From positions 5,383 through 69,382 of the forward strand of contig JBBIOJ010000007.1 of NCBI GenBank assembly GCA_037443445.1: a stretch of 64,000 nucleotides of DNA, read 5' to 3'. Shown here piece by piece: positions 45,225 to 63,340 of the stretch. Under the pieces are notes generated by a model. The model had not been told where the DNA came from. It did not search any database and worked only from the letters and a program-made list of their open reading frames with translations. This DNA comes from Desulfarculaceae bacterium (GTDB lineage: Bacteria > Desulfobacterota > Desulfocorpusculales > Desulfocorpusculum). A program made the position numbers and the translations under genes. How positions within the stretch are numbered: the stretch's first letter is position 1; each line of letters opens with the position of its first letter.

Positions 45225-45365
45225 AGGGGTTGAACCGAGCCTGCTCAGCAAGTGCCTAAGGCAACAACGCTGGAGGGGGCAGGTGGGCTTGGGGTAGGCC
45301 CAAGGCCATCCAGGTCACAAACCCGGGGAGCAGGACTCCCACTCTCTTGCAAAAGGAGGACGGCC

Positions 45366-46633: not shown

Positions 46634-47490
46634 GGGGGACTTTCGCATATCACCGACCGAGTGACCTGGACGGGGCTCTGGAGCTCATGGATGAGTTGGG
46701 GGGGCAGGCCCTTCCCCTGGCAGGTGGGACCGACCTCATGGTGGAAATGCGAGAGGGGAAATACAGGGGTTACCACCTGGTGGATATCAGTAGGCTCCCC
46801 GAACTCAAGCTCCTGGAGCTACAGGATGGGGAGATTCACCTGGGGGCCGGCCTCACCTTCACCGAGATCTCGGGCTCGGAGCTTCTCAGGCTGCACGCCC
46901 CTGCCCTCGTGCAGGCAGCTTCCCAGATAGGGAGCCTCCAGATACGCAATGTGGCCACATTGGGAGGGAACGTGGTGCATTGCTCCCCCTGCGCGGACAG
47001 CGTGCCTGGGTTGTTGGTGCAGGACGCCAGGGCAATCTTGAGAAGTCTGGGAGGTACACGGGAGGTGCCGCTTCAGGAAATCCTTGTGGGGCCTTACAAG
47101 AGCGGTATACAGGCCGGGGAACTCCTGACTTGTTTCTGCCTCAGAAGCGCCTCAGGCATGTGGGGGGCCTTCCACAAGCTGGCCAGGAGAAGCTCCCTGG
47201 CCATAGCCAGGTTGAGCTTGGCAGTTCTGACAAGGCAGGGAGAAGAGGGGTTGAGTGATGTGCGGATCGCCCTTGGCTCTGGGACTCCTGTGCCACGCCG
47301 CATGGTGGAGGCTGAGGAGTTCCTCCTGGGCAAGGCCCCAAGAGAAAAGGATCTTTGGGAGGCAGGCCGTGTGCTGGCCTCAAAGATGGTGGAGGTGACC
47401 GGCAAAAGGCCTTCCACTGTTTACAAGGAGAAGGCGGCTCAGGGCCTCCTGGTCCAGGCCATGCTGCCCTTGGTGAGACATGGGAACTGA
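46630..47490 (+). CDS. Molybdenum hydroxylase FAD-binding medium subunit (CoxM-like)
   Basis: Probable GTG start overlapping the small-subunit stop. FAD-binding domain of the CO dehydrogenase flavoprotein family (AGGTDLMVEM). Confidence 0.65.
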   Translation: MRGTFAYHRPSDLDGALELMDELGGQALPLAGGTDLMVEMREGKYRGYHLVDISRLPELKLLELQDGEIHLGAGLTFTEISGSELLRLHAPALVQAASQIGSLQIRNVATLGGNVVHCSPCADSVPGLLVQDARAILRSLGGTREVPLQEILVGPYKSGIQAGELLTCFCLRSASGMWGAFHKLARRSSLAIARLSLAVLTRQGEEGLSDVRIALGSGTPVPRRMVEAEEFLLGKAPREKDLWEAGRVLASKMVEVTGKRPSTVYKEKAAQGLLVQAMLPLVRHGN

Positions 47491-49762
47491 GTTGGAATGG
47501 ATCTCCAGGTCCGTGCCCAGGATCGGTGCGCTGGAGCGCTTGAGGGGCATGCCCATTTTCGGTGCGGACATCCAGCTGGAAGATTGTCTGGTGCTCAGGG
47601 TATTCAGGAGCCACAGGCCTCATGCCAAGATCATGGAGCTGGACGTGGAAGAGGCCAGGAAGCTCCGGGGTGTGGAGGGGGTGTTCACAGCTAGGGATAT
47701 CCCCGGCAAAAACCTCATGGGCCTCATCACCAAGGACCAGCCGCTTCTGGCCCAAGACAGGGTGCGTTTCGTGGGAGACCCGGTGGCCTTGGTGGCCGCC
47801 AGGGACGAGGAGTCTGCCCAGAGGGGTTTGGAGGCCATAAGGGTCAGGTACCAGGAGCTCCCAAGCATCTTCTCTCCTGAGGAGGCCCTGGCCGAGGGGG
47901 CCGTGGCCATCCACGACAAGGGCAACCTGCTTCACAGAAGAGTGGTGCGAAAGGGGGATGCGGCCTCTGCCATGGAGAGGGCCGCCGTGGTGGTGGAGCG
48001 CACTTACCGAACCCCTCACATCGAGCACACTTACCTGGAGCCAGATGCCGGGGTCGGGTACCGGGAGTGGGACGGCACCTTGGTGATTCTGGCCTCCACA
48101 CAGAACCCCCACTATGACCAGAAGGAGGTGGCAGGGCTCCTGGGCCTGCAGGAGGAGAAGGTAAGGGTCATACAGGCTGCCACAGGGGGAGGGTTCGGCT
48201 CCAAGCTGGATCTCACAGTGCAGGGGTTCATAGGGCTTGCCCTGTACCACTTGGGAAGGCCGGTGCGTTTGGTCTTCACTCGGGAGGAGGCATACCTGGC
48301 CACTCCCAAGCGCCATCCCCTCACCATATGGATGAGGACAGGGGCTGACTCCAAGGGCAAGCTCCTGGCCCTCCAGGCCAGGATAGTGTGTGACACAGGA
48401 GCCTACTCCTCTTACGGGGTGGCAGTTGCCACCAGGGCCGCCATCCACGCCACTGGACCCTACGAGGTGGAAAACGTGGAGGTGGAGAGCCTGGCCGTTT
48501 ACACCAACAATCCCATAGCCGGTGCCATGAGGGGTTTCGGGGTTCCCCAGGTGGCCTTTGCCCATGAATCCCAGATGGATCTCTTGGCCCAGGAGCTTGG
48601 GATGGATCCTCTCCAGATCCGCCTCAGAAACGCTTTTCAGGAGGGATCCTCCACCGCAACGGGCCAGAAGCTGGGCTCCAGCGTTGGAATCCTGGAGTGC
48701 CTGGAGGCCCTGGAGCCCCATTATCGTGAGGCTGTAAGCTCCTGGAAGGGCTCGGGCGGCTCCAGGTACCTGAGAAGAGGTGTTGGGCTTGGGGCCATGT
48801 GGTACGGCATAGGCAACACAGGGGTCCAAAACCCGTCCACTGCCAGGGTTGAGCTGGACGATGACGGCCGTGTCACGCTTTATATAGGGGCGGCTGACAT
48901 GGGGCAGGGCTCCACAACGGTCCTGGCCCAGATAGCAGCCCAGGTGCTGGGCATGCAGCCAGAGAGGCTAAGACTGGTGGTGGCGGACACTGCACGCACT
49001 TCCAATGCCGGGGCTTCCTCTGCCAGCCGCCAGACATACATATCAGGCAATGCCGTGCTGGAGGCCTGTGCCAAGCTGGCCCAGGTGCTCCTCACAGAGG
49101 CTTCGGACATGCTCAGGGCCCCCAAGCACACACTTCTGCTCAAGGGTGAGGGGGTGGCTGACTCCACGGATCCCCAAAGGAGTGTCTCTTTCATGGAGCT
49201 GGCACAAAGGGCCAGGAAAAAGAACATACCCCTGTCCTGGCAAGGCTACTTCGATCCAGAGACTACCCCCCTTGACCCGGAGACCGGCCAGGGAATCCCC
49301 TACGCCACTTACGCCTTTGCATGTCAGATGGCCCAGGTGGAAGTGGATGTGCTCACGGGCAGGGTGAGGGTTCGCAGGGTCGCGGCTGCACACGATGTGG
49401 GAAGGGCAGTGCACCCCGAGGCGGTGAAGGGGCAGATCCTGGGAGGGGTGGCCATGGGCTTGGGCTTCGCGCTCATGGAGGAGTTCGTTCCCGGCTCCAC
49501 TGTATCCATGAAGGACTATCACATCCCCACTGCTGCGGACATGCCCGAGGTGGTTCCCATCATAGTAGAAGCTCCAGAGCCCACAGGTCCTTTTGGGGCA
49601 AAGGGAGTGGGGGAGCCTGCCCTGATCCCAACCGCCCCGGCCATCCTGAATGCCATAGCCGATGCCTTGGGGGAGCGGATATACCAGCTGCCCGCCAATC
49701 TGGAGAGGGTGCTGGAGGCCTGCATCAGGGCAGGCCATTTTCCAAGCATGGAGGTCAAGTGA
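47480..49762 (+). CDS. Molybdenum hydroxylase large (molybdopterin-binding) subunit, xanthine dehydrogenase family
   Basis: 760 aa with aldehyde oxidase/xanthine dehydrogenase a/b hammerhead and MoCo-binding domains. Confidence 0.85.
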   Translation: MGTELEWISRSVPRIGALERLRGMPIFGADIQLEDCLVLRVFRSHRPHAKIMELDVEEARKLRGVEGVFTARDIPGKNLMGLITKDQPLLAQDRVRFVGDPVALVAARDEESAQRGLEAIRVRYQELPSIFSPEEALAEGAVAIHDKGNLLHRRVVRKGDAASAMERAAVVVERTYRTPHIEHTYLEPDAGVGYREWDGTLVILASTQNPHYDQKEVAGLLGLQEEKVRVIQAATGGGFGSKLDLTVQGFIGLALYHLGRPVRLVFTREEAYLATPKRHPLTIWMRTGADSKGKLLALQARIVCDTGAYSSYGVAVATRAAIHATGPYEVENVEVESLAVYTNNPIAGAMRGFGVPQVAFAHESQMDLLAQELGMDPLQIRLRNAFQEGSSTATGQKLGSSVGILECLEALEPHYREAVSSWKGSGGSRYLRRGVGLGAMWYGIGNTGVQNPSTARVELDDDGRVTLYIGAADMGQGSTTVLAQIAAQVLGMQPERLRLVVADTARTSNAGASSASRQTYISGNAVLEACAKLAQVLLTEASDMLRAPKHTLLLKGEGVADSTDPQRSVSFMELAQRARKKNIPLSWQGYFDPETTPLDPETGQGIPYATYAFACQMAQVEVDVLTGRVRVRRVAAAHDVGRAVHPEAVKGQILGGVAMGLGFALMEEFVPGSTVSMKDYHIPTAADMPEVVPIIVEAPEPTGPFGAKGVGEPALIPTAPAILNAIADALGERIYQLPANLERVLEACIRAGHFPSMEVK

Positions 49763-49763
49763 C

Positions 49764-50927
49764 ATGTCTACGGTGCTTCTCAGGAACATAGGTACACTCG
49801 TGAGTGGAAAGCTCGAGGAGCCTCTCCTGGTGGCGGATGCCATTCTCATCCGGGACGGGAAGATCCAGAAGGTGGGTTTCCTCAGGGACATGGAGGAATC
49901 CCAGGCCCAAGTGGTCATAGACTGTGCCGGGACAACAGTAATCCCAGGCCTGGTGGACTCCCACTGCCACCCGGTACTGGGGGACTTCACTCCCAGGCAG
50001 AACCAAGTGGGCTATTTGGACAGTGGGGTGCACGGGGGTGTCACCACGGTGATATCGGCCGGGGAGGTGCATCTGCCTGGAAGGCCAAAAGACCCGGCAG
50101 GCACAAAGGCCTTGGCAATACTGGCTGCCAAGAGCTTTTCCGCATTTCGTCCGGGTGGAGCAAAGGTGCTGGGCGGGGCCCTCATCCTGGAGAAAGGTCT
50201 TACAGAGGCAGACTTTGAGGAGGCTGCCAGGGAAGGTGTCAAGGTGGTAGGTGAGATAGGGTTGGGCTCTGTCAAGTCACCCGAAGACGCCAGGCCCATG
50301 GTGAGGTGGGCCAAACAAAACGGAATGGTTGTCATGATGCACACTGGGGGGACTTCCATTCCCGGCAGTTCCACGGTGGGGGCGGAGCAGGTCATGGCCG
50401 TGGGGCCTGACGTGGTATCTCACATAAACGGCGGCACCACCGCCATGTCCATGGCCGAGGTACAGAGACTCATCAGAGAAACCCCCTATGCCCTGGAGAT
50501 AGTGCATTGCGGGAACATGAAGGTGGCGGTGGAGGCAGCCGGGCTCATAGCCGAGGCTGGAGCCAAGCAAAGGGTGGTGATCGGAAACGATGCCCCCTCG
50601 GGCACAGGGGTGGTGCCTCTTGGCATCCTAAGGGTTATCACTCTTTTGGCAGGGCTGTCCCCTATCAGGCCCGAAGAAGCCGTGTGCATGGCCACAGGCA
50701 ATACCACACGCCTTTACAAACTGCCCAGGGGGATAATAGAGCCCGGCATGGAGGCAGACTTGGTGATAATGGACGCCCCTTTGGGCTCTGTGGGCAGAGA
50801 TGCTCTCTCGGCCATGGCCGCGGGAGACATCCCCGGGATTTCCATGGTGCTGGTGGATGGGCAAGTCTTGGTGCAGAAAAGCAGAAACACCCCGCCCGCC
50901 ACCAGGCAGGCCTTTGTGGTGAAATAG
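49764..50927 (+). CDS. Amidohydrolase-superfamily enzyme, enamidase-like (6-oxo-1,4,5,6-tetrahydronicotinate amidohydrolase-like)
   Basis: Metal-binding HxH (VDSHCHPVLGDF). Size and context match enamidase of the nicotinate fermentation pathway (inference). Confidence 0.55.
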   Translation: MSTVLLRNIGTLVSGKLEEPLLVADAILIRDGKIQKVGFLRDMEESQAQVVIDCAGTTVIPGLVDSHCHPVLGDFTPRQNQVGYLDSGVHGGVTTVISAGEVHLPGRPKDPAGTKALAILAAKSFSAFRPGGAKVLGGALILEKGLTEADFEEAAREGVKVVGEIGLGSVKSPEDARPMVRWAKQNGMVVMMHTGGTSIPGSSTVGAEQVMAVGPDVVSHINGGTTAMSMAEVQRLIRETPYALEIVHCGNMKVAVEAAGLIAEAGAKQRVVIGNDAPSGTGVVPLGILRVITLLAGLSPIRPEEAVCMATGNTTRLYKLPRGIIEPGMEADLVIMDAPLGSVGRDALSAMAAGDIPGISMVLVDGQVLVQKSRNTPPATRQAFVVK

Positions 50928-51101
50928 GCCTAACCCTCAGCCCTCTTAGCAAGCACTGTGGAAGCGTGCCAGGGGTTTGGGGGCGAAGCCCCCAATCTGG
51001 CGGTTCCTGGAGAATTGTCCTAGCCAATTGCGGGCGGCTCTACGCCCGGTTCTGAATCCTGGACTCTCAAGGCCGCCGTGGGCCGCGGCCCAAGAGGTGA
51101 G

Positions 51102-52616
51102 ATGATGCTAGTTGATTCTAGGAAATGCACTGGTTGCGGGGAGTGCGTGCTGGCCTGCCCTCTGGGGGTCTTGAGGCTGAAGGCCAAGAAGGCCCATGTT
51201 GGAGAGGGCTGCAGCCTCTGCGGGGCCTGCAAGAGGGTCTGTGCCCAGGAAGCCATTGATTTTCCAAGAGATACGCCCCAGGGCTCTGTGCGCTGCGAGG
51301 CCTGCCCCGTAGGGTGCCAGATCAGGGAAGGTTTCCTGGGAGCCTGCCAGAGGTATCGCAACCAGCAGGGGCTTCTGGTAAGGGAGGTCCCTCTCCACAG
51401 CTTCAGGGATGTGGCCCAGGTGGTGGGGGAAGATGTGGCCCAGGAGCTGAGAAAGCCCCTGATCACGGCCATAGGAGCAGGCACCACCTATCCTGACTGC
51501 AGGCCGGCCCCCCATATTTTGCGCGGGAAGGTAAGAGGGGTGGAGGTGGTGACGGTTGTGACAGAGGCGCCTCTCAGCTACAGTTCGGTGCTGGTGAAGG
51601 TGGACACGGACTTGCCAGTGGGGGAAGAGGGGGCAAGGGTGAAGGTGGGCAAGAAGACCGTGGGTCACCTGACCACAGAGCAGTACGGCTCCAAGATGCT
51701 CTCCATAGGGGGGGTGAATCTCTTGACCGGCCCGGAGGGTATGGTGGTGGCCCGAACCCTTTGCGACATTGCCAACCGCAGGCCCGTGAGGCTGACCGTG
51801 GAAGGAGGAGCCAGGCTCGAGCTCCGAGTGGGCTTTCCCCCGGTCGTGGATGGTAAGGAGGCCTCCAGGATGCGGGTGGGCTGCGGAAGCGCCACCATGG
51901 GGCTTTTTGCACCTCTGTTCAAGGAGGCGGCCGACGAGGTGATAGTCCTGGACTCCCACCTGACAGGCCTCATGAGCGAACATGCTGCCGGGAGGTTTGT
52001 AGGGGTTAGGCCCACGGGGGTAAGGCTCCGTTTCAGGCAATCCACCCCCGGGAGATATTTCGGTGACCAAGGATCGGGTTGGGGGGGTACCTCCATCCTG
52101 GAGCCCAGGGAGGTGATCCAGGAGGTGGACATGAAGGTGGCTTGGCCTGGAATGAGAATACTTGTCACCGAGACCACCGGGGAAAGGGCAGTCATGTTCC
52201 AGGTGGGCCATGGAGGGGACCTCCAGGAAGTGGAGCTGACAGAGCAGGCCAAGCAGGCCGTAAGGGCCGTGGCTTCCAGCTGCGAGCCTGCCCGCGTGTC
52301 CGCCCTCTACATGGGAGGGGCGGGGGGTAGCGCCAGGGCCGGGGTGAGCAGGTACCCCATCAAGCTTACCCAGGCGGTGCATGCCAGAAAGGCCAATTTG
52401 ACTGTGGGAGGGGCCCCCAGTTTCATTCTGCCGGGCGGAGGAATAAACTTCATGGTGGATGTGGAGAGGGTGAAGATGGGCTCTTTCTATTGGACCCCCA
52501 CTCCAGCCACCATCTGCCCCATAGAGTACACCATGCGCCTTAGTGACTACCAAGAGATGGGCGGGCATGTGGAAGCCATGAAGCCTTTCCGGGTGGCCAG
52601 AGGGAAAGGGGTATGA
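51102..52616 (+). CDS. 6-hydroxynicotinate reductase-like protein (N-terminal 2x[4Fe-4S] ferredoxin domain plus a large uncharacterised domain)
   Basis: Motifs CTGCGECVLACP and CSLCGACKRVC at the N-terminus. Architecture and adjacency to the enamidase-like and Mo-hydroxylase genes (inference). Confidence 0.45.
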   Translation: MMLVDSRKCTGCGECVLACPLGVLRLKAKKAHVGEGCSLCGACKRVCAQEAIDFPRDTPQGSVRCEACPVGCQIREGFLGACQRYRNQQGLLVREVPLHSFRDVAQVVGEDVAQELRKPLITAIGAGTTYPDCRPAPHILRGKVRGVEVVTVVTEAPLSYSSVLVKVDTDLPVGEEGARVKVGKKTVGHLTTEQYGSKMLSIGGVNLLTGPEGMVVARTLCDIANRRPVRLTVEGGARLELRVGFPPVVDGKEASRMRVGCGSATMGLFAPLFKEAADEVIVLDSHLTGLMSEHAAGRFVGVRPTGVRLRFRQSTPGRYFGDQGSGWGGTSILEPREVIQEVDMKVAWPGMRILVTETTGERAVMFQVGHGGDLQEVELTEQAKQAVRAVASSCEPARVSALYMGGAGGSARAGVSRYPIKLTQAVHARKANLTVGGAPSFILPGGGINFMVDVERVKMGSFYWTPTPATICPIEYTMRLSDYQEMGGHVEAMKPFRVARGKGV

Positions 52617-52702
52617 GCCGGGGGGGAAAGAGCCCTGGTGGTTTCAAGCCTGGAACTCCCCAAAGCGCGCAAGAGAAAGGCCGCTGGGTTTCCTGAAGAA
52701 GC

Positions 52703-53554
52703 ATGGGCTACGAGCAAGAGATAAGCTTGCTTAGGGATGGCTCGGTTCTGGTGGAGTGTGGGCCCATGCGCCTCAGAATCTGGGCCTGGATGGGAAGGCT
52801 TTCGCAGCCCAAGGAGGCCATGAGGGCGGCCCAGGAGTCCATCGGTTTGCTTGAGCAGGCAGCAGCCCAACGGCCTTGGCTCACGGCTTCCTGGGAATCA
52901 GTCTGCCAGGAAAGACTGGGATCCCTGGGGCACAGGATGTGGCAGAGTGTGGCCATGGTGGGGGATCCTGACCTCACACCCATGGCTGCCGTGGCCGGGA
53001 GCATAGCAGACGGGGTTGCGGATTTTCTGGAGGCCAGGGGTCTTACCAGGGTGATCGTGGAAAACGGCGGAGACATAGCCTTGAGGCTGGCCCCTGGGGA
53101 AAAGGTGCAAGTGGGACTGCGCCCCAGGGTGGACCGCAAGAGGGTGAGCCACTCTCTGGGACTTGATGGCTCAAGAGCCTCCTGGGGGGTGGCCACAAGC
53201 GGTCTTGGAGGCAGGAGCTTCACGCGCGGAATAGCCTGGTCTGCCACGGTTGTGGCCCCCAGGGCATCCATCGCAGATGCGGCTGCAACGGCCGTGGCCA
53301 ATGCCACCTGGTTTCCCTGCGAGCAGGCAAGGAGAGTCAGGGCCGGGCAACTGGACCCTGATTCGGACATAGCCAAACTGGAGGTGACCGTGGGGGTAGG
53401 AAGGCTTCCCTTGGATGTGGCTTCCAGGGGTTTGGAAAAGGGGCTGGCAAGAGCCGCGGATCTGAGAGCTCGCGGGGTCATAGAGGGGGCTTTTTTGTGC
53501 GTGGGTTCCATGTGCGGCTCGGTGGGGCTTGGGGATCTTCTTGAGGCAGTCTGA
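52703..53554 (+). CDS. UPF0280/ApbE-like family protein
   Basis: 283 aa with Gly/Ala-rich conserved blocks. Family assignment is tentative. Confidence 0.35.
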   Translation: MGYEQEISLLRDGSVLVECGPMRLRIWAWMGRLSQPKEAMRAAQESIGLLEQAAAQRPWLTASWESVCQERLGSLGHRMWQSVAMVGDPDLTPMAAVAGSIADGVADFLEARGLTRVIVENGGDIALRLAPGEKVQVGLRPRVDRKRVSHSLGLDGSRASWGVATSGLGGRSFTRGIAWSATVVAPRASIADAAATAVANATWFPCEQARRVRAGQLDPDSDIAKLEVTVGVGRLPLDVASRGLEKGLARAADLRARGVIEGAFLCVGSMCGSVGLGDLLEAV

Positions 53555-53571
53555 AAGGAGGAGGTGCTCAG

Positions 53572-54150
53572 ATGGAAATAAGGAAAATAGTCACCCTGGT
53601 GGAGGAGGTTTGGGAAGAGGGAGGCATGGTTGTGAAACCCCCTGTGAAAAGGGCCGCTGCCATAGCCGTGATCAAGAACCCTTTTGCAGGAAAGTTCGTC
53701 CAGGAGCTTTCGGAGCTCATTGATGCAGGGGAGAAGCTGGGGGATCTCCTGGGGAAAAAGGCCGTAGAGGTGCTGGGAGTCCCGCCTGAGAAGGTGGAGA
53801 GTTATGGCAAGGCGGCCATAGTTGGGAGCAAGGGTGAGCTGGAGCACGCCGCTGCGATTCTTCATCCCAAGCTGGGCACTCCTTTTAGGGCAGCCGTGGG
53901 AGGGGGCAAGGCCATCATCCCCTCTGCCAAGAAGTTCGGGGTGCCGGGAACGGAAATAGACGTGCCCGTGCACTTCAAGGATGCGGCATTTGTGCGCTCT
54001 CACTTCGATGCCATGCCCGTGAGGGTGTACGACGCTCCCAGGGAGGACGAGATAGTTGTAGCCCTGGTGGTCACAGACTCGGGCCGTCCCCTTCCCAGGA
54101 TAGGCGGGCTCAAGAAAGAGGAGGCCAAGAAGGAAGACGGGCTTAGGTAA
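53572..54150 (+). CDS. Amino-acid-synthesis (PF06684-like) family protein
   Basis: 192 aa; tentative family match (KAAIVGSKGELEHAAAILHP). Confidence 0.35.
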   Translation: MEIRKIVTLVEEVWEEGGMVVKPPVKRAAAIAVIKNPFAGKFVQELSELIDAGEKLGDLLGKKAVEVLGVPPEKVESYGKAAIVGSKGELEHAAAILHPKLGTPFRAAVGGGKAIIPSAKKFGVPGTEIDVPVHFKDAAFVRSHFDAMPVRVYDAPREDEIVVALVVTDSGRPLPRIGGLKKEEAKKEDGLR

Positions 54151-54173
54151 TTCACACCCCGGGGGTGGTCGGA

Positions 54174-54650
54174 ATGGATAAGTCGGGGCTTCTCAAAAGG
54201 CTGGAGAAGGCCTGGGAGGAACTCAAGGACTCCTACGCAGACTTGGGGGAGCAGGAGCTCTTGGAGTCCGGCGTGACAGGCGATTGGTCGGTTAAAGATA
54301 TTGTCGCGCATGTGAGCTCCTGGGAGGAGGAGGCCCTGACTTACCTACCCGTGATCCTGGAGGGGGGAAAACCGCCTAAGTACTCAGTCCTGTACGGAGC
54401 CATAGACACCTTCAATGCCCGTATGACCCAAGAAAACCGAAAACTCTCACTCTCAGAGGTAATCCAGAGACGGGATTTCATCCATGCCAAGCTCTTGGAA
54501 TTCATAGGAGAGGTCCAGCAAGAATATTTTCTCAAGGAAAACCGTTTTAGGCGTAGGCTTAGGTTGGACACCTACGGCCACTATAGAGAGCACGCCCAAG
54601 CCATAAAAAACTGGAAGGAAAGGAAGGCCCAGGTCTCCTGCAACAGATAG
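54174..54650 (+). CDS. ClbS/DfsB-family (DUF1706) four-helix-bundle protein
   Basis: Motif WSVKDIVAHVSSWEEE, typical of the family. Confidence 0.45.
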   Translation: MDKSGLLKRLEKAWEELKDSYADLGEQELLESGVTGDWSVKDIVAHVSSWEEEALTYLPVILEGGKPPKYSVLYGAIDTFNARMTQENRKLSLSEVIQRRDFIHAKLLEFIGEVQQEYFLKENRFRRRLRLDTYGHYREHAQAIKNWKERKAQVSCNR

Positions 54651-55605
54651 CCGTGGAAAACCTTGTGCCTGGGAGCACTGTCTGCCGGGTTTTCGGGGGC
54701 AGGCTGGAGTTGCTTCTCTGTTTCAGGTTCAAGGCGGTTTGAGTGAGAATAGGTAGCGGTCCCCATAGGGCTTACGGCTAAGCTCCAAGAGTTTCTGATT
54801 CAGTCAAACTTGCCGGTTTGAAAACAAGGCTTGGGCTGTAGGCAGAGGGGATCATTCGGTATTGAGTCTTTTGCTCTCGAAGGCCTCGCAAAAAATAAAT
54901 CAGAATTTGTTAAAGCGTGTAAAGATGAGGGCTAGGGCCAGTAACTCGGGCCCTGCCAACGTGAACTCCTCTGCCAAACCCGGCAGCACGGAGCCTGTGA
55001 GTTCCAGGAACTCCTCGTATGCTATGGAGACGAGCGCCCAAGAGACCTCGCACACCTCCCGGCCGAACTTGCAGCCCAACATCTTGTGGAGCCCATCGAA
55101 CCCCGGCTCCCACACGAAAAGCCTTCTGTGACCGGGCAGGGCTCGCGGTGCGACAACGGCAACTCGAAGATGTCGGCCAGCGAAGGGGTCTGATCGGTGC
55201 ATATCACCAGGGTAGGCTCCCCGCTTCGGGCACAGTGCAGTATCGTATTCCCCGTGTGCTCCGTTGAAACAAGGAAACATGTTCTTGCAGGCGATCGCCT
55301 AGGTGGGTTGGGGCACCTCTTTTCGCTTCACCTCTTCTGCGCTTAAGCCTTCAGAGGGTTCGGCCTCCGGAGGGGCCTTGCCTCACCCCCCCGCTCAGTC
55401 AAGGCTGGGCTTCGGCCGGACGCGCTTGAGCCGGACCCCAGGTCTAGGTCCCGGGAGACTGCCTCCAAGCTGCGCTTACTTGAGCTCAGTCGGTAACTGA
55501 TTTATCACTTAGCGGCATCGGGGCGCGCCCCTGAAGCCCCCAATCTGTTTCCCTTATCGCTTAGGGAAAACTATCCAAGTCAAAGGCAAGGGGGCAAGCT
55601 CTTTT

Positions 55606-55652
55606 GTGCCTGGGGCGGGAATCGAACCCGCACGGGGACAAGCCCCAAGGGA
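55606..55652 (-). repeat. 47-bp direct repeat identical to the 3' half of tRNA-Leu(TAA) (anticodon-stem 3' strand through discriminator); island distal att site
   Basis: Exact match to 63255..63302. Contains the GGTTCGATTCC T-loop in minus orientation but has no 5' half, so it is a tRNA fragment and not a gene. Confidence 0.7.
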
Positions 55653-56007
55653 TATTGAGCCAGGATCTCGAATCGGGCGATTCCCCAGAGTAGTTCCAAA
55701 CCACACAGACAAGAACCTGGATCTCGGCTCCGGGGGCCTGTTGCCCGTCCTTGAGCTTGGGGATCCAGTTGTATGCCAATGACTTGCTCGGGCAAGTAAG
55801 ACAGATGGCGTGCACAGTGGCATGACGAGGGTTATACCGTCGACCGGGTCCGCACAACGGGCTGCGACTTCGCAGTTAATCCTAGATGAATGCATTGTCA
55901 CATCAGGCCAAGACAGGCGATCTCTCTTGGAGGGGGGTGCGCCCATCTCAAATCCTGCTTCCCTGTGCTGGGTCCCGAAGGCACTGCCACGACCTGGACC
56001 CGGGCTT

Positions 56008-56955
56008 TCATCCAGCCACGCCGGAAAGGTCGAATAACCGGACCGCAAGGGACTCTATGAACCCTCCATGGGAGATCTTCTGAGACCATTGCCGGGGGAT
56101 TCTCTCCCAGCCGTAGTAGGCCCCGGCAATCTGTCCGTATACGGCCCCGGTTGTGTCTGCGTCCTCCCCCAGGTTGACGGCCAGGAGGCAGCCCTCCTCA
56201 AAGGTCGAGCCCCGGTGGAAGGCCCAGAGGGCCGCCTCCAGGGACTGGACCACGTAGCCGGTCCCCCGGATGGCAGGGGGTTCCTTGCGTTTGAACGATC
56301 CCGATGCTACGTCACGGATCTCTGACACCAAAGGTCTCCTCTCCCAGTAGTCAGGGACGGGGGTAAAGCGATCGGAGAGCAGTTCGTCCTTGGAGGCCCC
56401 CCGGACTGCACCCACGATCAGGGCCCCGAGATATCGGCAGGCATCCACGGCCGAGGGTGCGCCGTGGGTCGTCCTGGAGCTCTCGCCGGATCTCTCCATG
56501 GCCTCCTCCGGGTTCTTGGCAAAAAAGAGGGGGACAGGGGCCAGCCGCATGATGGACCCATTGCCTGCGCTTCGGGGGTCCGTGGACCCACTGAAGGGTT
56601 CTCCAGTCTTCTCGAAACGAACGAGCGCGTCCCTGACCGTGTTCCCGATGTCGAAGCAGCGGCCCGTGCTGCTCAGATGCCCTTCCCGATACCACCTCAG
56701 GTATCGCCGCATCTGGTCCTCTGGGTCGAACCCCTTGCACTCGATGAGGCTCTGGGCCAGGCACAGGGCCATGGAGGTGTCGTCCGTCCATTCCCCTGGT
56801 TTGAGGTGGAAGGGCCCACCACCCACCATGTCCGAGATGGGCTCGAAGGTCCCGGGACGCCGGAACTCCAGGGTCGTTTCCAGGGCATCCCCCACGGCCA
56901 GCCCCACAAGGCACCCACGATAGCGATCCAGGAGTTCTTCACGGGTCACGCACAC
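56008..56955 (-). CDS. ADP-ribosylglycohydrolase (ARH/DraG family)
   Basis: N-terminal [13 protein letters not shown] and C-terminal [20 protein letters not shown], the Mg-binding hallmarks of ARH. Confidence 0.85.
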
Positions 56956-57517
56956 CTCCCTTCGCAGTCCGGTCCATCTTGTCCCAGCCTCTCACCATGT
57001 CCCGCTGGGCCCCTGTCTCCGGCGAGGCCCCATGCGCGTCCGGGGTGTCCTTGCGGAACTCTTTGATCCTCCTCAGGGCCTCTTCCCCAGTCATGCCTTG
57101 GCGCACCAGGTAGCAGCCCACCACGGTCCCGGTCCGGCCCCGTCCGCCCCAGCAATGGACGTAGACCGGACGTCCTGCCTGGATGGCCCCGTCGATCTCG
57201 TCCAGGATGGCGTTCATCCTCTCGGCGGTGGTTATATGCATGTCCCGGATCGACAGGCGGCTCGTGCTGACTTCCATACCCCGCTCTACACCCAACTGTT
57301 TGAACACCTGCTCGTAGGGAACGAACGACCGCCCCGTGTGGTCCACCTCGCCCTCCTCCATGAGGTTCACCACGTGCCGGATCCCGCACTCCAGCAGGCC
57401 CTGGATCTTCCGCCTGGCCTCGGCCGGGTCCTTGTGGCCCGGGTACGCGCCTGCCAGGAATCTCCCGGGGATGACCCAGTAGGATCTTGGAAAAGGTGTC
57501 TCCACGTGAACCTTCAA
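56939..57517 (-). CDS. Dual-specificity / protein-tyrosine phosphatase-like protein (HCxxGxxR P-loop)
   Basis: P-loop [12 protein letters not shown]. Overlaps the ARH start by 17 nt, suggesting translational coupling. Confidence 0.7.
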
Positions 57518-57872
57518 CTCACCTTCACAAGCTCCATCCGATCGTTACCGGCCTTGTTGTGCCACCAACTGAAGCGCATCCCGAAAGCCTCTGCAATGGG
57601 GATGAACTTGTCCCAGAATTGGCCCGCCTATTCGGGTCCTAAGCCGTAGGTTTCCATCAAATTTAGAAGTCATTCACTTCCAACCCGTGGTCCTTCACAT
57701 ACTGAAACATGATGGCGATATGGATGGAGAAATCCAGCTGCTCATGCTACCACAGCTCATCCCGAGTCCAGCCGGTATGGTGTTCGGGTGTCATGCGGTC
57801 CTCCCGGGGTCAGGGTGTAATCGGAAATGTTGAGGTCTGGACTTCCCTCAACGCATAGGTCGCGAGTGCCTC

Positions 57873-58220
57873 TTATGAGAAGAACCTTACCCTCGCCAAG
57901 GGAGGCACCCTGTGATCATGATTGCATCCCGCAGTGCGTCTATTCATCCGCCTGTAGACTTCTCGAGTCGCTTCGTGCCACGATACCCCTGAGTCGACCA
58001 ACCTCAGGACCTCGGCTGCTACGGGACCCGTATCAAAGGGCCCTTCACGACACCAATCCAGGTATCGCCGACCAAGGTCTTCGATATCGAATTCTTTGTT
58101 TTCCACAAAACTCTGGGGCAACCGGAGGGCCATTCGTGTGGGTCTACCGTTGCGGTCTCCAGCTGCGAAGCCCAGCATTACTCCTCTGACGCGATCAGTT
58201 CTTTCCCGGCTCAGCGACAT
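57873..58220 (-). pseudogene. Truncated ADP-ribosylglycohydrolase (N-terminal about 115 aa only)
   Basis: Motif GVMLGFAAGDRNG (the ARH N-terminal motif). The reading frame then ends, and downstream frames contain only stop-interrupted protein-like fragments (57530..57870). Confidence 0.45.
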
Positions 58221-58248
58221 CTAAGCCTCCGAGTCACCTTGTGAGAAA

Positions 58249-58711
58249 TTATCTCCTCTTCCTGTGCGCGAACATGTAGCCCATGATTGCGTTGCCGATG
58301 ATCTTAGGGATCGAGGAATTGAATCCCTCCAGCGGAACATCGATCAAAGTTCCCAGGCACCTCTCGCAAATGGCTCTATATCGCCTCATTATCGTTAGGA
58401 ACTTGTCGTCGTCGGAACCGTGCAGTAGGGACCTGAAGAGCCCGCACGTGTAGGAACGCTCAATCGGCGGGACAAGATCGGTAAGGACGTGCTGGAGAAT
58501 CTTCCATTGGCCAACAAGCTTGGATGGCCCCCCCATAAAGCGTATTCCCGACTTTTCTCAGGGTGCCTACGATCCCTTCAAGATTGGTTTCGGTGAGGTC
58601 CGCCAGTTTCCTCTCAGCAAGCCCCTCCAACACATTTCGCTGGCCAGTGATCGAATCCGCAAGAACATAATAGCCTCCCATCTTGGGTCTTTTTGAGCCC
58701 ATGGTGTGCAT
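58249..58711 (-). pseudogene. Hypothetical gene with a frameshift inside a G6-7 homopolymer run (about 58545); two overlapping ORFs join into an approximately 175-aa protein
   Basis: ORFs 58460..58711 and 58249..58536 overlap and shift frame exactly at TATGGGGGGCC. This is either a sequencing error, phase variation or decay. Confidence 0.35.
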
Positions 58712-58764
58712 GCCCCAAGAGACCAGGACTCCGTAAATAGCTTCCAGGAACTATTCTTCCTTTA

Positions 58765-59862
58765 TTAAGACTTGCATTGTCTACAGGACATATGGTATCA
58801 TGTTTATATGAGCTCGATGGACGGCAGGAAGCTGGACCACAAGACCAGGGAAGCCATCCGGATCCGTGCGGTCAGGAGGGTCCTGGCCGGGGAGAGCCCG
58901 GAGGTGGTGGTAAAGGCTCTGGGGTTCAGCAGGCAGAGGATCTACGAGTGGCTTGCAAGGTATAGGGAAGGTGGGGAGGAGGCTCTTAGATTTAAGGGGA
59001 TACCCGGCAGGAAGCGAAAGCTCAGTGATGCTCAGATGAGGAAGCTCTACGGGATTGTGACGGGCAAGAACCCTCTTCAGCTCAAGTTTCGCTTTGCTCT
59101 TTGGACCCGTGGGATGGTAAGGCAGCTGATATTGGAGCGATTTGGGGTAAGTCTTAGCGAGTCTCAGGTTGGCAGATTGTTGAAGGGGATGGGTTTGACA
59201 GCTCAGAGGCCTCTCAGCAGGGCTATGGAGAGGGATCCTCAGAGTGTTGAGAAGTGGCTCAGGGAGGAGTATCCCAGGATCCGTGCCCTGGCCAGGGAGA
59301 AGAAGGCCACGATTTACTTCGGGGACGAGGCTGGGGTTCGCTCTGATTACCACAGTGGCACCACCTGGGCTCCCAGGGGGAAGACCCCTGTTGTTGAAAG
59401 CACTGGGGCTCGCTTCAGGTTGAATTTGGTCTCTGCAATAAGCTCCAAGGGGCAGCTACGCTTCATGACCACCCCCGGGAGGATGAGCGCAGGGAAGTTT
59501 GTGGAGTTTCTAAGAAGGCTCATGCACAACCAGAGAAGGCCCGTGTTTCTGATTCTGGATGGGCATTCCATTCACAAGGCCAAGGTGGTGAGGGACTACG
59601 TGGAGTCTACCAAGGGGAAGCTTCGGCTTTTTCATCTTCCTCCCTACTCCCCGGATCTGAACCCTGGGGAGCTGGTGTGGAACCATCTGAAGAACCACAA
59701 CCTAGGTCGGGAGGTCGTCAAGGGTCAGGAGCACATGAGACAGAGGGTGCTCTCCATAATGAGGAGCCTTCAGCGCATGCCGGCAAAGATCATCTCCTTC
59801 TTCAAGGCCCCCAGGCTGCGCTACGCCCTCGCCTAATGTCCTGAAGACAATGACCTCCTTAA
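58765..59862 (+). mobile_element. IS630-family insertion sequence (about 1.1 kb) with imperfect terminal inverted repeats and a TA target-site duplication
   Basis: Left end TTAAGACTTGCATTGTCTACAGGACAT pairs with right end ATGTCCTGAAGACAATGACCTCCTTAA (about 24 of 32 nt match). TA dinucleotides flank at 58763-64 and 59863-64. Confidence 0.7.
58772..59836 (+). CDS. IS630-family DDE transposase
   Basis: N-terminal HTH domains, a DDE domain (RLNLVSAISSKG ... LILDGHSIHKAK ... PPYSPDLNPGE) and the characteristic size. Confidence 0.85.
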   Translation: MHCLQDIWYHVYMSSMDGRKLDHKTREAIRIRAVRRVLAGESPEVVVKALGFSRQRIYEWLARYREGGEEALRFKGIPGRKRKLSDAQMRKLYGIVTGKNPLQLKFRFALWTRGMVRQLILERFGVSLSESQVGRLLKGMGLTAQRPLSRAMERDPQSVEKWLREEYPRIRALAREKKATIYFGDEAGVRSDYHSGTTWAPRGKTPVVESTGARFRLNLVSAISSKGQLRFMTTPGRMSAGKFVEFLRRLMHNQRRPVFLILDGHSIHKAKVVRDYVESTKGKLRLFHLPPYSPDLNPGELVWNHLKNHNLGREVVKGQEHMRQRVLSIMRSLQRMPAKIISFFKAPRLRYALA

Positions 59863-60597
59863 TAGCAGGTGAACATGGTCGGCCGAGTTACTGATCCTTC
59901 CGATTAGTTTCTGGTGAAAGAAGAAGCTGGGACCGGAAAATGGATTTCGACTGTTGAAGTGGTCCAGGTAATTATGGAAGTTAAGGCACAACTCATCGAG
60001 CCTTCCGATGAGGCTTCGAGGGACCCGAGATCCGTTTGCCTGTGGTGTTGTCCTCGTTGGCTGGCCATCCGTCGCCACGAAGTGCCTTCTTATTTGATTG
60101 TTATACCAATCTAGGAGATACCTGTGTCCGGCTGGGATCTTCTCCCGGTGGAGTTTGGTTTGCCGATTACGATATCTGCTTTCATGCATCGCATCTCCGG
60201 GCACGAACAATCTACATCTTCCGTGCCCGTCATCCGAGAGGTAGTACCTGTTGTAGCCTGTGTTCAGCTTCTTCTGGGCGACAACATGTTGACTCACGTG
60301 GGTTGCGATGCCAGGCTTTGTGTCGTTGAAAAGTCTCTCCGCCTCCTCAATAATTCTTTCATTCGAAACCGTGTGCCTCGGATTGTTGGCTTCATGGGCC
60401 AATCGAGCCATGGCGATCCACATCTCAACGGTATCTTGGGCATGAACAACGCCTGTCCCAAAGGCAAAGAGCCAGCCCAACTCATCAGGATGGCAGCCTT
60501 CAGGCCCGCACGAAGTTGGGTCCTTGTCGACTGGATATCGGCGGGCAAGGAGCCTCGCAGCCATGACACAGATGGCTTCATAGATCGGCGTCGTCAC
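59833..60597 (-). CDS. Hypothetical protein (254 aa); the C-terminal few codons are supplied by the IS630 end
   Basis: Frame is open from 60597. The IS inserted within the last 5 codons or just 3' of the gene. No family recognised. Confidence 0.3.
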   Translation of the reverse strand: MTTPIYEAICVMAARLLARRYPVDKDPTSCGPEGCHPDELGWLFAFGTGVVHAQDTVEMWIAMARLAHEANNPRHTVSNERIIEEAERLFNDTKPGIATHVSQHVVAQKKLNTGYNRYYLSDDGHGRCRLFVPGDAMHESRYRNRQTKLHREKIPAGHRYLLDWYNNQIRRHFVATDGQPTRTTPQANGSRVPRSLIGRLDELCLNFHNYLDHFNSRNPFSGPSFFFHQKLIGRISNSADHVHLLLRRSLSSGH

Positions 60598-60641
60598 TTT
60601 CTTGCCTCTCTATGATTCGCCTCTCCCCTGGGACTCCAGAA

Positions 60642-61745
60642 CTAGGTTTCCCGCTCCAGTTCCGCCAACAACTCATCTAGCACCTTGAAGTCACACCTCT
60701 CTGGCAGAAGGATCCAGAGCATCCCGAGATACGCGAGCGATGCACTCCGAAGGCATCGCCCGAGCAAGCCGACGAACCTTTGGGCTGGAAGCGACCCATG
60801 CCGGGTTCCAATCATGGGGAGGGCCACGGAACGGACCCGCCTCTTCTCCGTCTCGTGGAACAGGCGCCTCAGCGCAGATTCAACCCACTCCTCCCTCCAA
60901 GAGGGCTCCTGGTCGAGGTCGTGCACTATAGCGAAAATCCTCAGAGGATTCCTGCCCCCTACGACAACACTCCCAGGTTCATATGGTTGATGATCTTCCA
61001 GTCGTGCTCTGAGACGGCTGATGTCCTCATCGATGTCAGGGATTTTCGGATCCGCGCTCAACACGAGACAGGTGTCCTCCTCAAAAACACGGGCCTGATG
61101 TCTAGGTAGTTCGGCCTTCTCCGGGACCTCCAGTATCTCTGTAGGGCCAAATCGAATTCCCATCTGTCCATCCACATCGATTCTTTCAAGCCTTCGCCGG
61201 CTAAGCTGCCTTGGTTTCTCGAACGGGACGATCTTCCCCCTGTCCTGTGGCCGTGACAGCCGGTTCTTGATGGAGTCCACTCGGTTCGCCAGCCCAAAAG
61301 TTTCCAGAATCATCTCAACGGCCTTCAGCAAGAATTCCGCTTCTGTGCGGCTCGCCTCCCGTCCGTTATGGATCAGATCGTTTCGCAGGCGGTTTAATTC
61401 ATCCAGGTTGATCATGCGGAGACCACTGACATCGCGGCCCGAAGCCTTCGACCACGCGTCGAGGAATTTCGATTCCCGATATACCCCTATGAGCTGGCCC
61501 AAGGTGAAGCGTTCGAAACCCTTTTCGCCTTTACCCAGATTCATCTCAGCTTTGTGAACCCTGATTCGATCCCCTTCCTCCAATTTCATCACTTGTTCAC
61601 GGAAAAGGAGCCGGAAGGCCGCCTCGATGATTCCGATACATTCCTTGGCCGCTATCGTGTATCCCTCGACTTCGAGGTTGCGCCGTATCAAATCCATCCT
61701 CCGCTTGACATCCATGGGTCTCTCCTGATGTCCTCCTACGTACAA
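60642..61745 (-). CDS. HEPN (Rx4HN; Swt1-like) to macro-domain fusion protein
   Basis: N-terminal helical domain with RNDLIHN (R-x4-H HEPN motif). The C-terminal roughly 140 aa contain macro-domain-like blocks (PGSVVVGGRNPLRIFAIVHD ... RSVALPMIGTRHGSLP). Domain calls are from motifs only. Confidence 0.45.
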   Translation of the reverse strand: MYVGGHQERPMDVKRRMDLIRRNLEVEGYTIAAKECIGIIEAAFRLLFREQVMKLEEGDRIRVHKAEMNLGKGEKGFERFTLGQLIGVYRESKFLDAWSKASGRDVSGLRMINLDELNRLRNDLIHNGREASRTEAEFLLKAVEMILETFGLANRVDSIKNRLSRPQDRGKIVPFEKPRQLSRRRLERIDVDGQMGIRFGPTEILEVPEKAELPRHQARVFEEDTCLVLSADPKIPDIDEDISRLRARLEDHQPYEPGSVVVGGRNPLRIFAIVHDLDQEPSWREEWVESALRRLFHETEKRRVRSVALPMIGTRHGSLPAQRFVGLLGRCLRSASLAYLGMLWILLPERCDFKVLDELLAELERET

Positions 61746-61822
61746 TCCACCGTGAACCCTCGGAATCCCCCCGCCCCCGGTTGCTGAGTCGGTGGTTGGA
61801 AATTACACGCAACAAACCTGCC

Positions 61823-62107
61823 TTATTGGTTCCAGTTGCTCTGGATGAAGTTCACGATCTCCTGAGAGTCAAGCCCGCGAGTTGTGTTGCCCACCCGGAT
61901 GTGAAACTCCTCTTTTTCCTCCGGCCTCAGTTCAAACATGAAATCAGGAGGGAATCTGTCTCTATTGCCTTTGACTGCCTGGTTCATGGCCTCGGTGGTT
62001 ACGCCGTAGAGCGTGGCCAGATCAGTAGTTAGCACGATTTCTTGCCCACGGAGGATGGCGCGCTCAATGCGCTCCACGGGGACGAGGCCCTGATCAGGCA
62101 TCTCCAC
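61823..62107 (-). CDS. ORF6N-domain protein (phage/antirepressor-associated KilA-N-like DNA-binding domain)
   Basis: Motif ILRGQEIVLTTDLATLYGVTTEAMNQAVKGNRDRFPPDFMFEL matches the ORF6N consensus. Confidence 0.5.
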   Translation of the reverse strand: MEMPDQGLVPVERIERAILRGQEIVLTTDLATLYGVTTEAMNQAVKGNRDRFPPDFMFELRPEEKEEFHIRVGNTTRGLDSQEIVNFIQSNWNQ

Positions 62108-62387
62108 CTCCGCGTGGACTTGGGGTGCTGAATTGTGACCTCAAACTCCCTGAAAGTTCGACTAGGTTCGCTTCAGATGGGGTCCCCTCGAAGACCTCCT
62201 GGGGGGCGATGAGATCCCGGTAGGTGGTGCGCTGCCCGATCCCCTCCCGCTGCGCCACTTGAGCCACGGTCAATCCGTTCGGACTGGCTTCAATGGAACG
62301 GATTATCCGCCGCTGGCGGGCAAGCTGGTCCCCTCGCATGACCCCTCCTCGAGAAGAGTAAACAGGGCGACCGCCGGACAGCCTCAT
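62094..62387 (-). CDS. Small HTH DNA-binding protein (recombinase/transposase-type HTH)
   Basis: Sequence LTVAQVAQREGIGQRTTYRDL. Overlaps the ORF6N gene start. Confidence 0.4.
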   Translation of the reverse strand: MRLSGGRPVYSSRGGVMRGDQLARQRRIIRSIEASPNGLTVAQVAQREGIGQRTTYRDLIAPQEVFEGTPSEANLVELSGSLRSQFSTPSPRGGGDA

Positions 62388-62661
62388 ACTATCAGCGGCC
62401 TCCTTCTTTGGTCAATGATTCCGGATCACTGAGCCCTCCGGCCCGCCGCTGGCTGAAGGGGCTGTAGCACAAGCGCTCCCTCTCCCGGCTTGAACCGCCC
62501 TCCCTCCTGAATGCCGAGAGGTGAAGGAGACGGTCACCAACGACCAGGGCCGAGGCCGAGAGGGCCTCTCCATCCAGGGACCGCCCAAATGCCGCCTGGT
62601 GGCCAAAGCACTGGACCTCCTGACCATTGAGGGCGAATACCGCGCAGGCCTGGCACTCAAC

Positions 62662-63100
62662 CTAGGGAAACGCCTTCAGATAATTCCCCAGGGGATCCCG
62701 TGGGCGCTCGAAGAGGTCGGCCATGGCCCGGGTGCGGCTCCTCACCCCCATGCGGGCACTCTTGGCCGCCAAGGCGTTCCAGATCATGCCCTGATCCGAG
62801 CGAAACCACTTCCCCGCCACCTTCCTGTCGGACATCGCCCGCCGGTGTTCCCTCCTCAGGCTCGCGTGCACCAGCCTTGCACCGGAGTCGAACTGCCTAC
62901 CCCTCTAGGCACACCTCCCCTGCGCCACGCAGCTCGAGGGAATGACCATCTCGGAACGCCCAGCGAACCGGATGGTGACATTAAGGATGCGGTTCTGCCC
63001 CGAGTTCCTTCCCGGCCGCGATCGCGCCGGCATCCCCAAGCGGGCAGCGATGACCATCTCGGGCCACAAGACACGCCCGGTGGCCTAGCGCTACAACATC
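62662..63100 (-). pseudogene. Degenerate tyrosine integrase (P4-like C-terminus), interrupted by stop codons
   Basis: The frame yields ...GKWFRSDQGMIWNALAAKSARMGVRSRTRAMADLFE, resembling a P4-type integrase C-terminal tail (xWADyLd). Upstream frames are broken. Sits directly adjacent to tRNA-Leu. Confidence 0.3.
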
Positions 63101-63252
63101 TCAGCTGGAGAAGACCTGAAGCAGCCGGCCAGAAAGCAGGGAATCCATGCCCAGAGCCAATCCATGGATGGGACCTTTCCCCATTGCGTTCCTGGCTTCG
63201 GTTTTGGCGGGATGGGCAGGCGCAAGCACCGAGGGCAAGTTCTTGAAATCAC

Positions 63253-63340
63253 TGGTGCCTGGGGCGGGAATCGAACCCGCACGGGGACAAGCCCCAAGGG
63301 ATTTTAAGTCCCTTGCGTCTGCCTATTTCGCCACCCAGGC
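63253..63340 (-). tRNA. tRNA-Leu (anticodon TAA), class II with long variable arm
   Basis: Acceptor stem GCCTGGG/CCCAGGC. D-arm GGCGAAATAGGCAGACGC (Leu-like). Anticodon loop CTTAAAA. Variable arm GGGGCTTGTCCCC. T-arm GCGGGTTCGATTCCCGC. CCA encoded. Confidence 0.8.

Follow-up and report, generated by a model that had tools for sequence, protein, structure and literature searches.

A tRNA-Leu gene and its displaced fragment

The 64,000-nt stretch analysed here, hereafter the window, comes from a Desulfarculaceae bacterium (GTDB lineage Bacteria; Desulfobacterota; Desulfocorpusculales; Desulfocorpusculum; assembly GCA_037443445.1, contig JBBIOJ010000007.1, positions 5,383 to 69,382 of the forward strand), and all coordinates given for it are positions within the window. 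Its minus strand carries an intact tRNA-Leu(TAA) gene with an encoded CCA end at 63253-63340, on which ARAGORN and Rfam (RF00005 tRNA, 59.9 bits) agree with an earlier sequence-only reading of this DNA; Rfam returned tRNA only and nothing else. A fragment of that tRNA lies 7.6 kb toward lower coordinates, downstream of its parent gene and in the same strand and orientation, an arrangement that insertion by a tyrosine integrase typically leaves. Nine genes lie in the interval between them, all on the minus strand apart from that of an IS630-family insertion sequence (IS). Five are wrecked (an ARPP-1 gene, a WYL transcription factor, an ORF6N-domain gene, a second ADP-ribosylglycohydrolase and a gene of an uncharacterised ~365-aa family), and what remains intact is an operon of a PTP-type phosphatase and an ADP-ribosylglycohydrolase (ARG/ARH), a gene for a HEPN-like/macro-like protein, and the IS630 transposase. 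We read the two tRNA repeats as an integration scar enclosing decayed accessory DNA, a now-immobile islet (55654-63252) downstream of tRNA-Leu(TAA), and put the probability of this reading at about 0.6.

The repeat on which this reading turns is perfect over 48 of 48 nt. Sequence alignment places an attL-like copy at 63255-63302, as the 3' part of the intact tRNA-Leu, and an attR-like remnant at 55606-55653, both on the minus strand; the repeat had been reported as 47 bp starting at 55606, which was right as to its exactness and one nucleotide short as to its length. When extended it reaches 54 nt with 2 mismatches. Its span on the tRNA begins at A38, in the anticodon loop, and ends with the first C of CCA. 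The anticodon loop is still recognisable in the remnant (CTCAATA versus CTTAAAA in the intact gene, 2 mismatches), and the remnant ends in CAA where all four intact genes compared have CCA. By chance alone, a 48-mer repeat has an expected frequency of ~1e-20. An ungapped scan of both strands of the 64 kb found no third copy above the shuffled-sequence maximum (best other match 27/48, null maximum 26-30), so the window holds two copies only. With no further att copies and no tandem array in the window, the repeat does not belong to an array of tRNA pseudogenes, an option that had been put forward as a way in which an integrative origin might fail.

Immediately outside the remnant, 55590-55605 resembles the flank of the intact tRNA at 63233-63246, with 12 of 14 nt shared (AAGAGCTTGCCCCC / AAGAACTTGCCCTC) after an 8-nt gap. 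Farther out, the 955 bp of 54651-55605 contain no convincing open reading frame (ORF), six-frame Pfam match or Rfam match; this is unusually long for bacterial non-coding DNA and may be more decayed sequence.

Decay is concentrated in the interval, with five pseudogenes and the IS, versus a flanking metabolic operon that is intact and conserved in 45 loci. The dinucleotide signatures of 55.5-59 kb and 59.5-63 kb are the most deviant in the window (122-152 versus a mean of 73, sd 26). GC and GC3 are patchy: 0.64-0.66 in the ARH, PTP and ARPP genes, 0.62 in the WYL remnant and 0.53-0.56 in the block between them. Overall GC was considered as a sign of foreignness and rejected, since the interval mean is that of the window.

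Intact and decayed genes of the interval

The sequence-only reading had taken the DNA beside the tRNA for a degenerate P4-like integrase. When 62380-63252 was scanned with Pfam in its three minus frames, that candidate was ruled out: the DNA there is an ARPP-1 pseudogene followed by the WYL remnant, and the Phage_integrase catalytic domain (R..HxxR..Y) does not appear between 62.4 and 63.25 kb even in degenerate form. Six-frame Pfam scans of 54650-63253 returned no integrase, serine recombinase, resolvase or rve domain at E<=0.1, leaving the DDE_3 transposase of IS630 as the only recombinase in that span, and tblastn of a real, tRNA-Leu-associated tyrosine integrase (from the phage contig L058, below) against the window gave a best E of 1.6.

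The ARPP-1 pseudogene (62443-62997, minus; PF20208, E 1.5e-29; homologues P0130 and P0131) aligns by blastx with aa 86-326 of intact 331-aa ARPP-1 proteins. Codons 1-85 are missing, stops interrupt it at 62905-62907 and 62662-62664, and ~54 codons have been deleted in frame. Beyond it lie codons 1-47, the helix-turn-helix (HTH) part, of a WYL transcription factor (62199-62339, minus), recognised by blastx and by a weak PADLOC WYL hit and sharing 70-77% identity with the WYL factors found after ARPP-1 in two other contigs, L050 and L053; ~300 codons, including the WYL and WCX domains, are gone. The HTH gene previously noted here is a real ORF (62094-62387), and its identity is this WYL-factor remnant. 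The adjoining gene had been correctly named as ORF6N (61823-62107, minus, 94 aa; PF10543, 1.5e-17). It resembles phage anti-repressors (by its PHROG match) and the PADLOC candidate PDC-S05 (1.8e-18), and comprises the N-terminal DNA-binding part only, the PDC-S05 models being 177-306 positions long.

At the other end of the interval stands an intact, Tri1/DraG-like ARH (56008-56955, minus; PF03747, 1.4e-84). Against NCBIfam it scores 329 bits for Tri1 and 164 bits for DraG, both under the equivalog cut-offs (490 and 337, respectively), and it has more than 8000 homologues, the top ones listed being 69-84% identical and from several phyla; another homologue adjoins integrase, DUF5906 and terminase genes. 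An intact phosphatase of the PTP/dual-specificity (rhodanese-phosphatase) superfamily (56939-57517, minus; Pfam PTP-SAK 2.4e-20, Tc-R-P 8.5e-18) overlaps the ARH start by 17 nt, and the two therefore form an operon. Its active-site HCx5R motif is intact (HCWGGRGR), in keeping with its earlier description as PTP-like, and P0011 is a natural PTP-ARH fusion 79% identical to the window ARH. The ARH fragment that had been noted at 57873-58220 (minus; Pfam, blastx) is indeed a piece of a second, different ARH: it shares 30% identity with the intact ARH and covers profile positions ~52-152 of 287 with an internal gap. Elsewhere, close ARH homologues (74% identical) occur as tandem ARH-ARH pairs (L048 2398-4330 and L049 1556-3584), which echo the intact ARH and second-ARH fragment of the window; the pair in L048 lies directly upstream of recC, recB and recD. 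A search of the cargo with PADLOC recognised no established defence system; it gave only the candidate PDC-S05, matched by ORF6N, and, for the 357-aa protein described below, DarG and Csx1 matches that fell short of the threshold.

IS630 (58765-59862, plus, 1098 bp) encodes an intact 354-aa transposase (58772-59836) with a DDE_3 domain and an N-terminal HTH. Its terminal inverted repeats (TIRs) are imperfect and 29 nt long, and a TA stands on each side (58763-58764 and 59863-59864), so the IS630 with TA duplication was rightly called; it is single-copy in the window. The gene it interrupts had been noted as frameshifted, and is larger than was claimed. Three ORFs (59833-60597, 254 aa; 58460-58711; 58249-58536) belong, in collinear order, to a single ~365-aa gene, now a pseudogene of an uncharacterised family (58261-60432, minus; collinear tblastn of P0157, P0158 and P0165), which is broken by the IS630 insertion, by an in-frame TAG at 58749-58751 and by a frameshift near 58540-58550. 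A family search and a Pfam scan of relatives placed the N-terminal domain of this family also at the head of a 1918-aa helicase-restriction endonuclease protein; a comparison of the frameshifted gene with plasmids gave no match.

The remaining intact gene (60642-61715, minus) encodes a 357-aa protein, 100% identical to the protein P0001 annotated in the source genome, with an N-terminal HEPN-like and a C-terminal macro-like domain. The HEPN-like domain carries an LRNDLIH (Rx4H) motif; across 8 homologues, LRNxxxH keeps its R, N and H without exception. Its AlphaFold2 model has a pLDDT of 90, and the best Foldseek matches of that model are HEPN proteins (2hsb, Csm6, AbiV), weakly so (E 0.1-2, TM ~0.5). 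PADLOC gives a sub-threshold Csx1/Csm6 match (2.9e-3), and Pfam gives no HEPN match for the protein. In the macro-like domain, the same residues are hit by four independent, weak sequence matches (E 1.6e-3 to 6e-3). Among the matches to this domain are Pfam macro (2.7e-3, score 18.1 under a cut-off of 22.0), PDB 5m31 (2.6e-3; annotated as 'Appr-1-p processing domain protein', and which we take to be a DarG macrodomain), and weak DarG matches in PADLOC and NCBIfam. Foldseek matches of this part are almost exclusively macro domains (E 2e-4, TM 0.5), in a region modelled at pLDDT 45-67. The earlier description of a HEPN-macro fusion is thus plausible and has moderate support, short of proof.

The N-terminal ~145 residues of this protein also occur in proteins with caspase (P0002, P0008) or S-adenosylmethionine (SAM)-methyltransferase (P0004, P0005, P0007) C-termini, and its C-terminal domain is common to P0006. 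The caspase partner is PF00656, and the fusions of the module (P0002-P0009) are in other organisms; the genomic context of the HEPN-caspase relative P0002 was uninformative. Operons that combine HEPN genes with genes for ADP-ribosyltransferase (ART) and macro domains have been described (PMC3710099); in PMC3710099 and PMC9503650 we found neither a HEPN-macro fusion nor the swapping of a HEPN module among partners. These observations raise the proposal, which we consider rather unlikely in its full form, that the 357-aa protein represents an undescribed family of modular effectors in which one HEPN-like module is joined interchangeably to macro-like, caspase or SAM-methyltransferase domains. 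The macro version would sense or remove ADP-ribose and switch on the HEPN RNase, leading to abortive infection, and would be the surviving functional core of the islet. The swappable module may merit separate study.

Related loci and the history of the interval

Integrases that use exactly this segment of tRNA-Leu exist, as follows from the layout of a phage attachment site. The 48-mer had no match in viral contigs, and a 34-mer found L058 (IMG/VR UViG_3300033148_005563), part of a T7-like phage that encodes a single-subunit RNA polymerase. Within its region 6949-8102 stands part of a tRNA-Leu(taa), from the anticodon stem/loop to CCA, in which ARAGORN calls no full tRNA; this fragment lies 78 bp from a tyrosine integrase (PF00589, 2e-29) and is flanked on both sides by CCCGTCAG arm-type repeats, an apparent attP for tRNA-Leu(TAA). 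The window fragment starts in the anticodon loop, the same sublocation as in this attP, which supports integration.

The most informative relative is L056 (FWPV01000951.1), in which SurE and PCMT genes are followed, after others, by a LysM/M23 peptidase gene, tRNA-Leu(taa), ~2.1 kb of further DNA, an intact ARPP-1 gene and a WYL gene. The flank directly downstream of the window tRNA, inside the interval (63204-63252, minus), is 78% identical over 46 nt to the L056 flank; the tRNA-Leu flanks of two further genomes with the same tRNA (L001 and L002) are unrelated to it. Nucleotide identity between window and L056 is 73% for ARPP-1 and 69% for M23. From this synteny it follows that the tRNA-proximal part of the interval is either old and shared, perhaps by vertical inheritance, or was acquired in parallel; in the latter case each lineage may have received a related element of its own at this site. 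Compared with L056, the window has lost ~2.3 kb, including ARPP-1 codons 1-85. No integrase is present in the visible 3.5 kb of L056, whose contig ends inside the WYL gene, 3.5 kb past the tRNA and before any distal repeat would show. L056 7031-11443 is the intact counterpart of the wreck beside the window tRNA.

The ARPP-WYL module stands at different loci in different genomes. In the contigs with the closest intact ARPP-1 genes (L050, L051 and L053), ARPP-1 is followed by WYL and then by ARG and large helicases or restriction genes. The window ARPP-1 remnant is 82% identical in nucleotides to the L050 copy, which is not linked to a tRNA, versus 73% to the syntenic L056 copy; this favours, without being decisive, horizontal movement of the module. 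In L050 (9163-18428) ARPP-1 lies beside a Y1 (IS200/IS605-like) transposase, ahead of WYL, ARG and a 1726-aa DEAD/MZB helicase.

A related genome with an empty tRNA-Leu site was sought in species-genome and metagenome scans, and none was found. Exact-protein look-ups of the window proteins gave no record. Scanning 185,579 species genomes with the 48-mer returned two intact tRNA-Leu genes only, in the Olavius Delta 3 symbiont and in a Syntrophobacteraceae metagenome-assembled genome, with unrelated flanks and no neighbouring integrase. A metagenome scan with the flanking AA_synth protein returned 45 loci (44-95% identity) that keep the upstream operon, none of them with a tRNA, DinB or M23 gene downstream.

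That operon forms the intact left flank of the islet (43671-54650) and encodes an aldehyde dehydrogenase, an isochorismatase, a xanthine-dehydrogenase-type molybdoenzyme, an amidohydrolase, a 4Fe-4S protein, an ApbE-like protein, AA_synth and, at its end, a DinB/DUF1706-like protein. The order molybdoenzyme - amidohydrolase - 4Fe-4S - ApbE-like - AA_synth recurs in many of the 45 loci and is joined by the aldehyde dehydrogenase in some and by the DinB gene in none (0/45). At its start (499-1327), the window carries clustered genes for tRNA-His, tRNA-Arg and tRNA-Lys.

From these features we infer an integration event, the roles of the enzymes and an order of decay. A tyrosine-integrase element carrying a copy of the tRNA segment from the anticodon loop to the 3' end would have inserted at tRNA-Leu at least once, leaving the two 48-nt repeats as its attL-like and attR-like products, and the region would then have acted as a hotspot. 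A lower-GC block (ORF6N, HEPN-macro and the 365-aa gene) would have split an ARPP-WYL-ARG system at WYL codon 47; the integrase, the beginning of ARPP-1 and the greater part of the second ARH would next have been deleted, and IS630 would have landed last, in the 365-aa gene. Having lost its integrase and any transfer genes, the region would be at best a relic resembling a cis-mobilizable element (CIME). Throughout, selection would have kept the phosphatase-ARH pair and the HEPN-like/macro-like gene. The ARH would take off ADP-ribose put on host proteins by foreign ARTs, the phosphatase would process the released ADP-ribose phosphate, and the HEPN-like/macro-like protein would be an ADP-ribose-binding or -removing module coupled to a putative RNase. 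A further idea, less likely than that of the modular effectors, is that phages such as L058, with the same tRNA-Leu att site, could still excise the integrase-less islet in trans.

Several observations weigh against an integration scar. No integrase, relaxase or excisionase lies anywhere in the interval, and arm-type repeats were looked for at its inner ends and not found. Strand exchange in the anticodon loop would call for identical sequence, and the remnant is mismatched there at 2 of 7 positions; the likeness of the outer flanks over 12 of 14 nt is not predicted by a simple attL/attR pair. The order and orientation M23 - tRNA-Leu - flank - ARPP-1 - WYL are matched in L056, and if the region is old, a perfect neutral 48-nt remnant is unexpected unless there was gene conversion or parallel recent integration. 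Mean GC is equal inside the interval (0.580) and across the window (0.583). An empty site was absent from every collection searched, these collections being without close relatives.

Alternatively, the region could be ancestral and variable: ARPP-WYL-ARG would already have stood at tRNA-Leu when the L056 lineage diverged, the scar would be incidental, left by a vanished element or by a partial duplication of the tRNA locus, and the interval would never have been a mobile unit. The arrangement shared with L056, the 46-nt flank included, is as expected on such a history; identities between the two are of the same order for ARPP-1, M23 and flank; neither the window interval nor the visible L056 locus has an integrase; and the outer-flank likeness hints at duplication of a tRNA together with its flank. 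However, it is improbable that a neutral 48-nt fragment should stay perfect while nucleotides diverge by ~27%, unless gene conversion acted on it; the ARPP-1 pseudogene is more like the L050 copy, which has no tRNA link, than that of L056, the dinucleotide signature is atypical, and the fragment begins exactly at the sublocation that an integrase uses. On balance we think such a history unlikely.

The islet could also be a composite formed by accretion, in which at least two elements or cassettes accumulated at a tRNA-Leu hotspot, one of high GC (ARG, PTP, ARPP, WYL) and one of lower GC (ORF6N, HEPN-macro, the 365-aa gene), with the internal att sites since deleted. The GC step between the two sets of genes is consistent with this, and the ORF6N block starts at the very point, codon 47, at which WYL breaks off, ORF6N itself being truncated. 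Because ARPP-1, WYL and ARG are contiguous in intact relatives, the ~4-kb block between the WYL and ARH remnants looks inserted. Yet no internal tRNA fragment is present, even a degenerate one, and the block boundaries show no recognisable repeats or recombinase; an accreted composite would in any case overlap an integration scar with decayed contents, rather than exclude it, and as a separate explanation it seems to us quite improbable. Least credible of all, and close to dismissed, is the sequence-only account of a single 7.6-kb integrative element, with a degenerate P4-like integrase at the tRNA, decaying in place. The geometry of the tRNA scar is right, the cargo is decayed and carries an IS, and a decaying mosaic is what is found, so this much of that account survives. 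The integrase does not, given the ARPP-1 and WYL remnants at the tRNA and an interval free of any element-type recombinase signal, and a single, discrete and recently integrated unit is not supported, given the L056 synteny and the lack of an empty site; the patchy composition and the truncation of genes at several junctions point to a mosaic. We therefore retain the integration scar around decayed accessory DNA as our preferred reading.

Comparison with known systems

By itself the region matters little, being another tRNA-linked hotspot where defence-type genes accumulate and rot. Its interest is as a worked case of a tRNA-fragment scar that can outlive its integrase. Islander (Hudson, Lau & Williams 2015, PMC4383910) defines islands in tRNA genes by a 3' fragment that lies downstream of the gene with matching orientation, and the window shares with such islands the intact tRNA, the displaced cognate fragment starting in the anticodon loop, the foreign-looking composition and the accessory cargo. 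It differs in that the tyrosine integrase required by Islander (PF00589) is absent from the interval, in that the interval is small (7.6 kb) and consists mostly of pseudogenes, and in that its absence from relatives has not been observed. Pipelines that require an integrase, Islander among them, would miss this islet. The phage attP of L058 has the same segment of tRNA-Leu, from anticodon loop to 3' end, with 34 nt at the 3' end identical; it differs by its integrase and its arm-type repeats, both absent from the window, and shows no other similarity to it.

Comparison with CIMEs, as defined in ICEberg 2.0 (PMC6323972), is closer in what has been lost. Both keep att-like repeats and lack integration and transfer genes, and the 48-nt cores of the window repeats are identical. 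The differences are the absence of arm-type sites in the window, the remnant's 2 mismatches among the 7 positions of the anticodon loop, and descent from an integrative and conjugative or integrative mobilizable element, which, like mobilisation, is putative here. CIMEs are described in Firmicutes, and the relatives of the window are Thermodesulfobacteriota-like.

The cargo had been described as thematically coherent around ADP-ribose chemistry. That coherence is real and already explained: judged by its gene families, the cargo is not new and matches the ARG-centric systems predicted by Iyer, Burroughs, Anantharaman and Aravind (2022, Viruses 14:1977, section 3.8; PMC9503650). In these, an ADP-ribosylglycohydrolase without a linked ART is usually coupled to a phosphatase of the rhodanese/PTP superfamily, often with a WYL or Nudix regulator and optionally with ARPP, macro or NADAR domains and nucleases; they are proposed, as a computational prediction, to remove the ADP-ribose that viral enzymes attach to host macromolecules (PMC9503650). 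In the window, six-frame scans of the interval found no ART or sirtuin family to accompany the ARG, and the coupled phosphatase is present, as its 17-nt overlap with the ARH and the fused homologue P0011 indicate. To our knowledge, there has been no experiment on ARG-centric systems.

An ARPP, a WYL-type regulator, a macro accessory and a setting in variable, mobile-looking DNA complete the likeness. The differences lie in the state of the parts. Of the one-component regulator only WYL codons 1-47 remain, the optional ARPP survives as a truncated pseudogene with a deletion and 2 stops, and with both dead, regulation as proposed in PMC9503650 cannot operate in the window. The components are also spread over 7 kb among unrelated fragments, and PMC9503650 makes no mention of a macro domain joined, as here, to a HEPN-like one. 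Intact relatives with ARPP-WYL-ARG and the window, in which the phosphatase-ARH pair alone is kept, together make a natural 'fossil series' for ARG-centric systems; because only that pair of the system has been kept here, the series suggests that it is the selectively useful core.

At the level of single genes, the window ARH aligns over nearly the whole model length of the Tri1/DraG ADP-ribosylarginine hydrolases; it differs from them in scoring below their equivalog cut-offs and in having no Tre1 or DraT partner in the interval. The insertion sequence is an ordinary member of the IS630 family, with the same DDE_3 and HTH transposase, a length of ~1.1 kb, TIRs and the TA target duplication, and no notable difference. 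Taken as a whole, the region joins things of known kinds: an islet or CIME-like relic linked to a tRNA, a system of the ARG-centric type, and an IS630.

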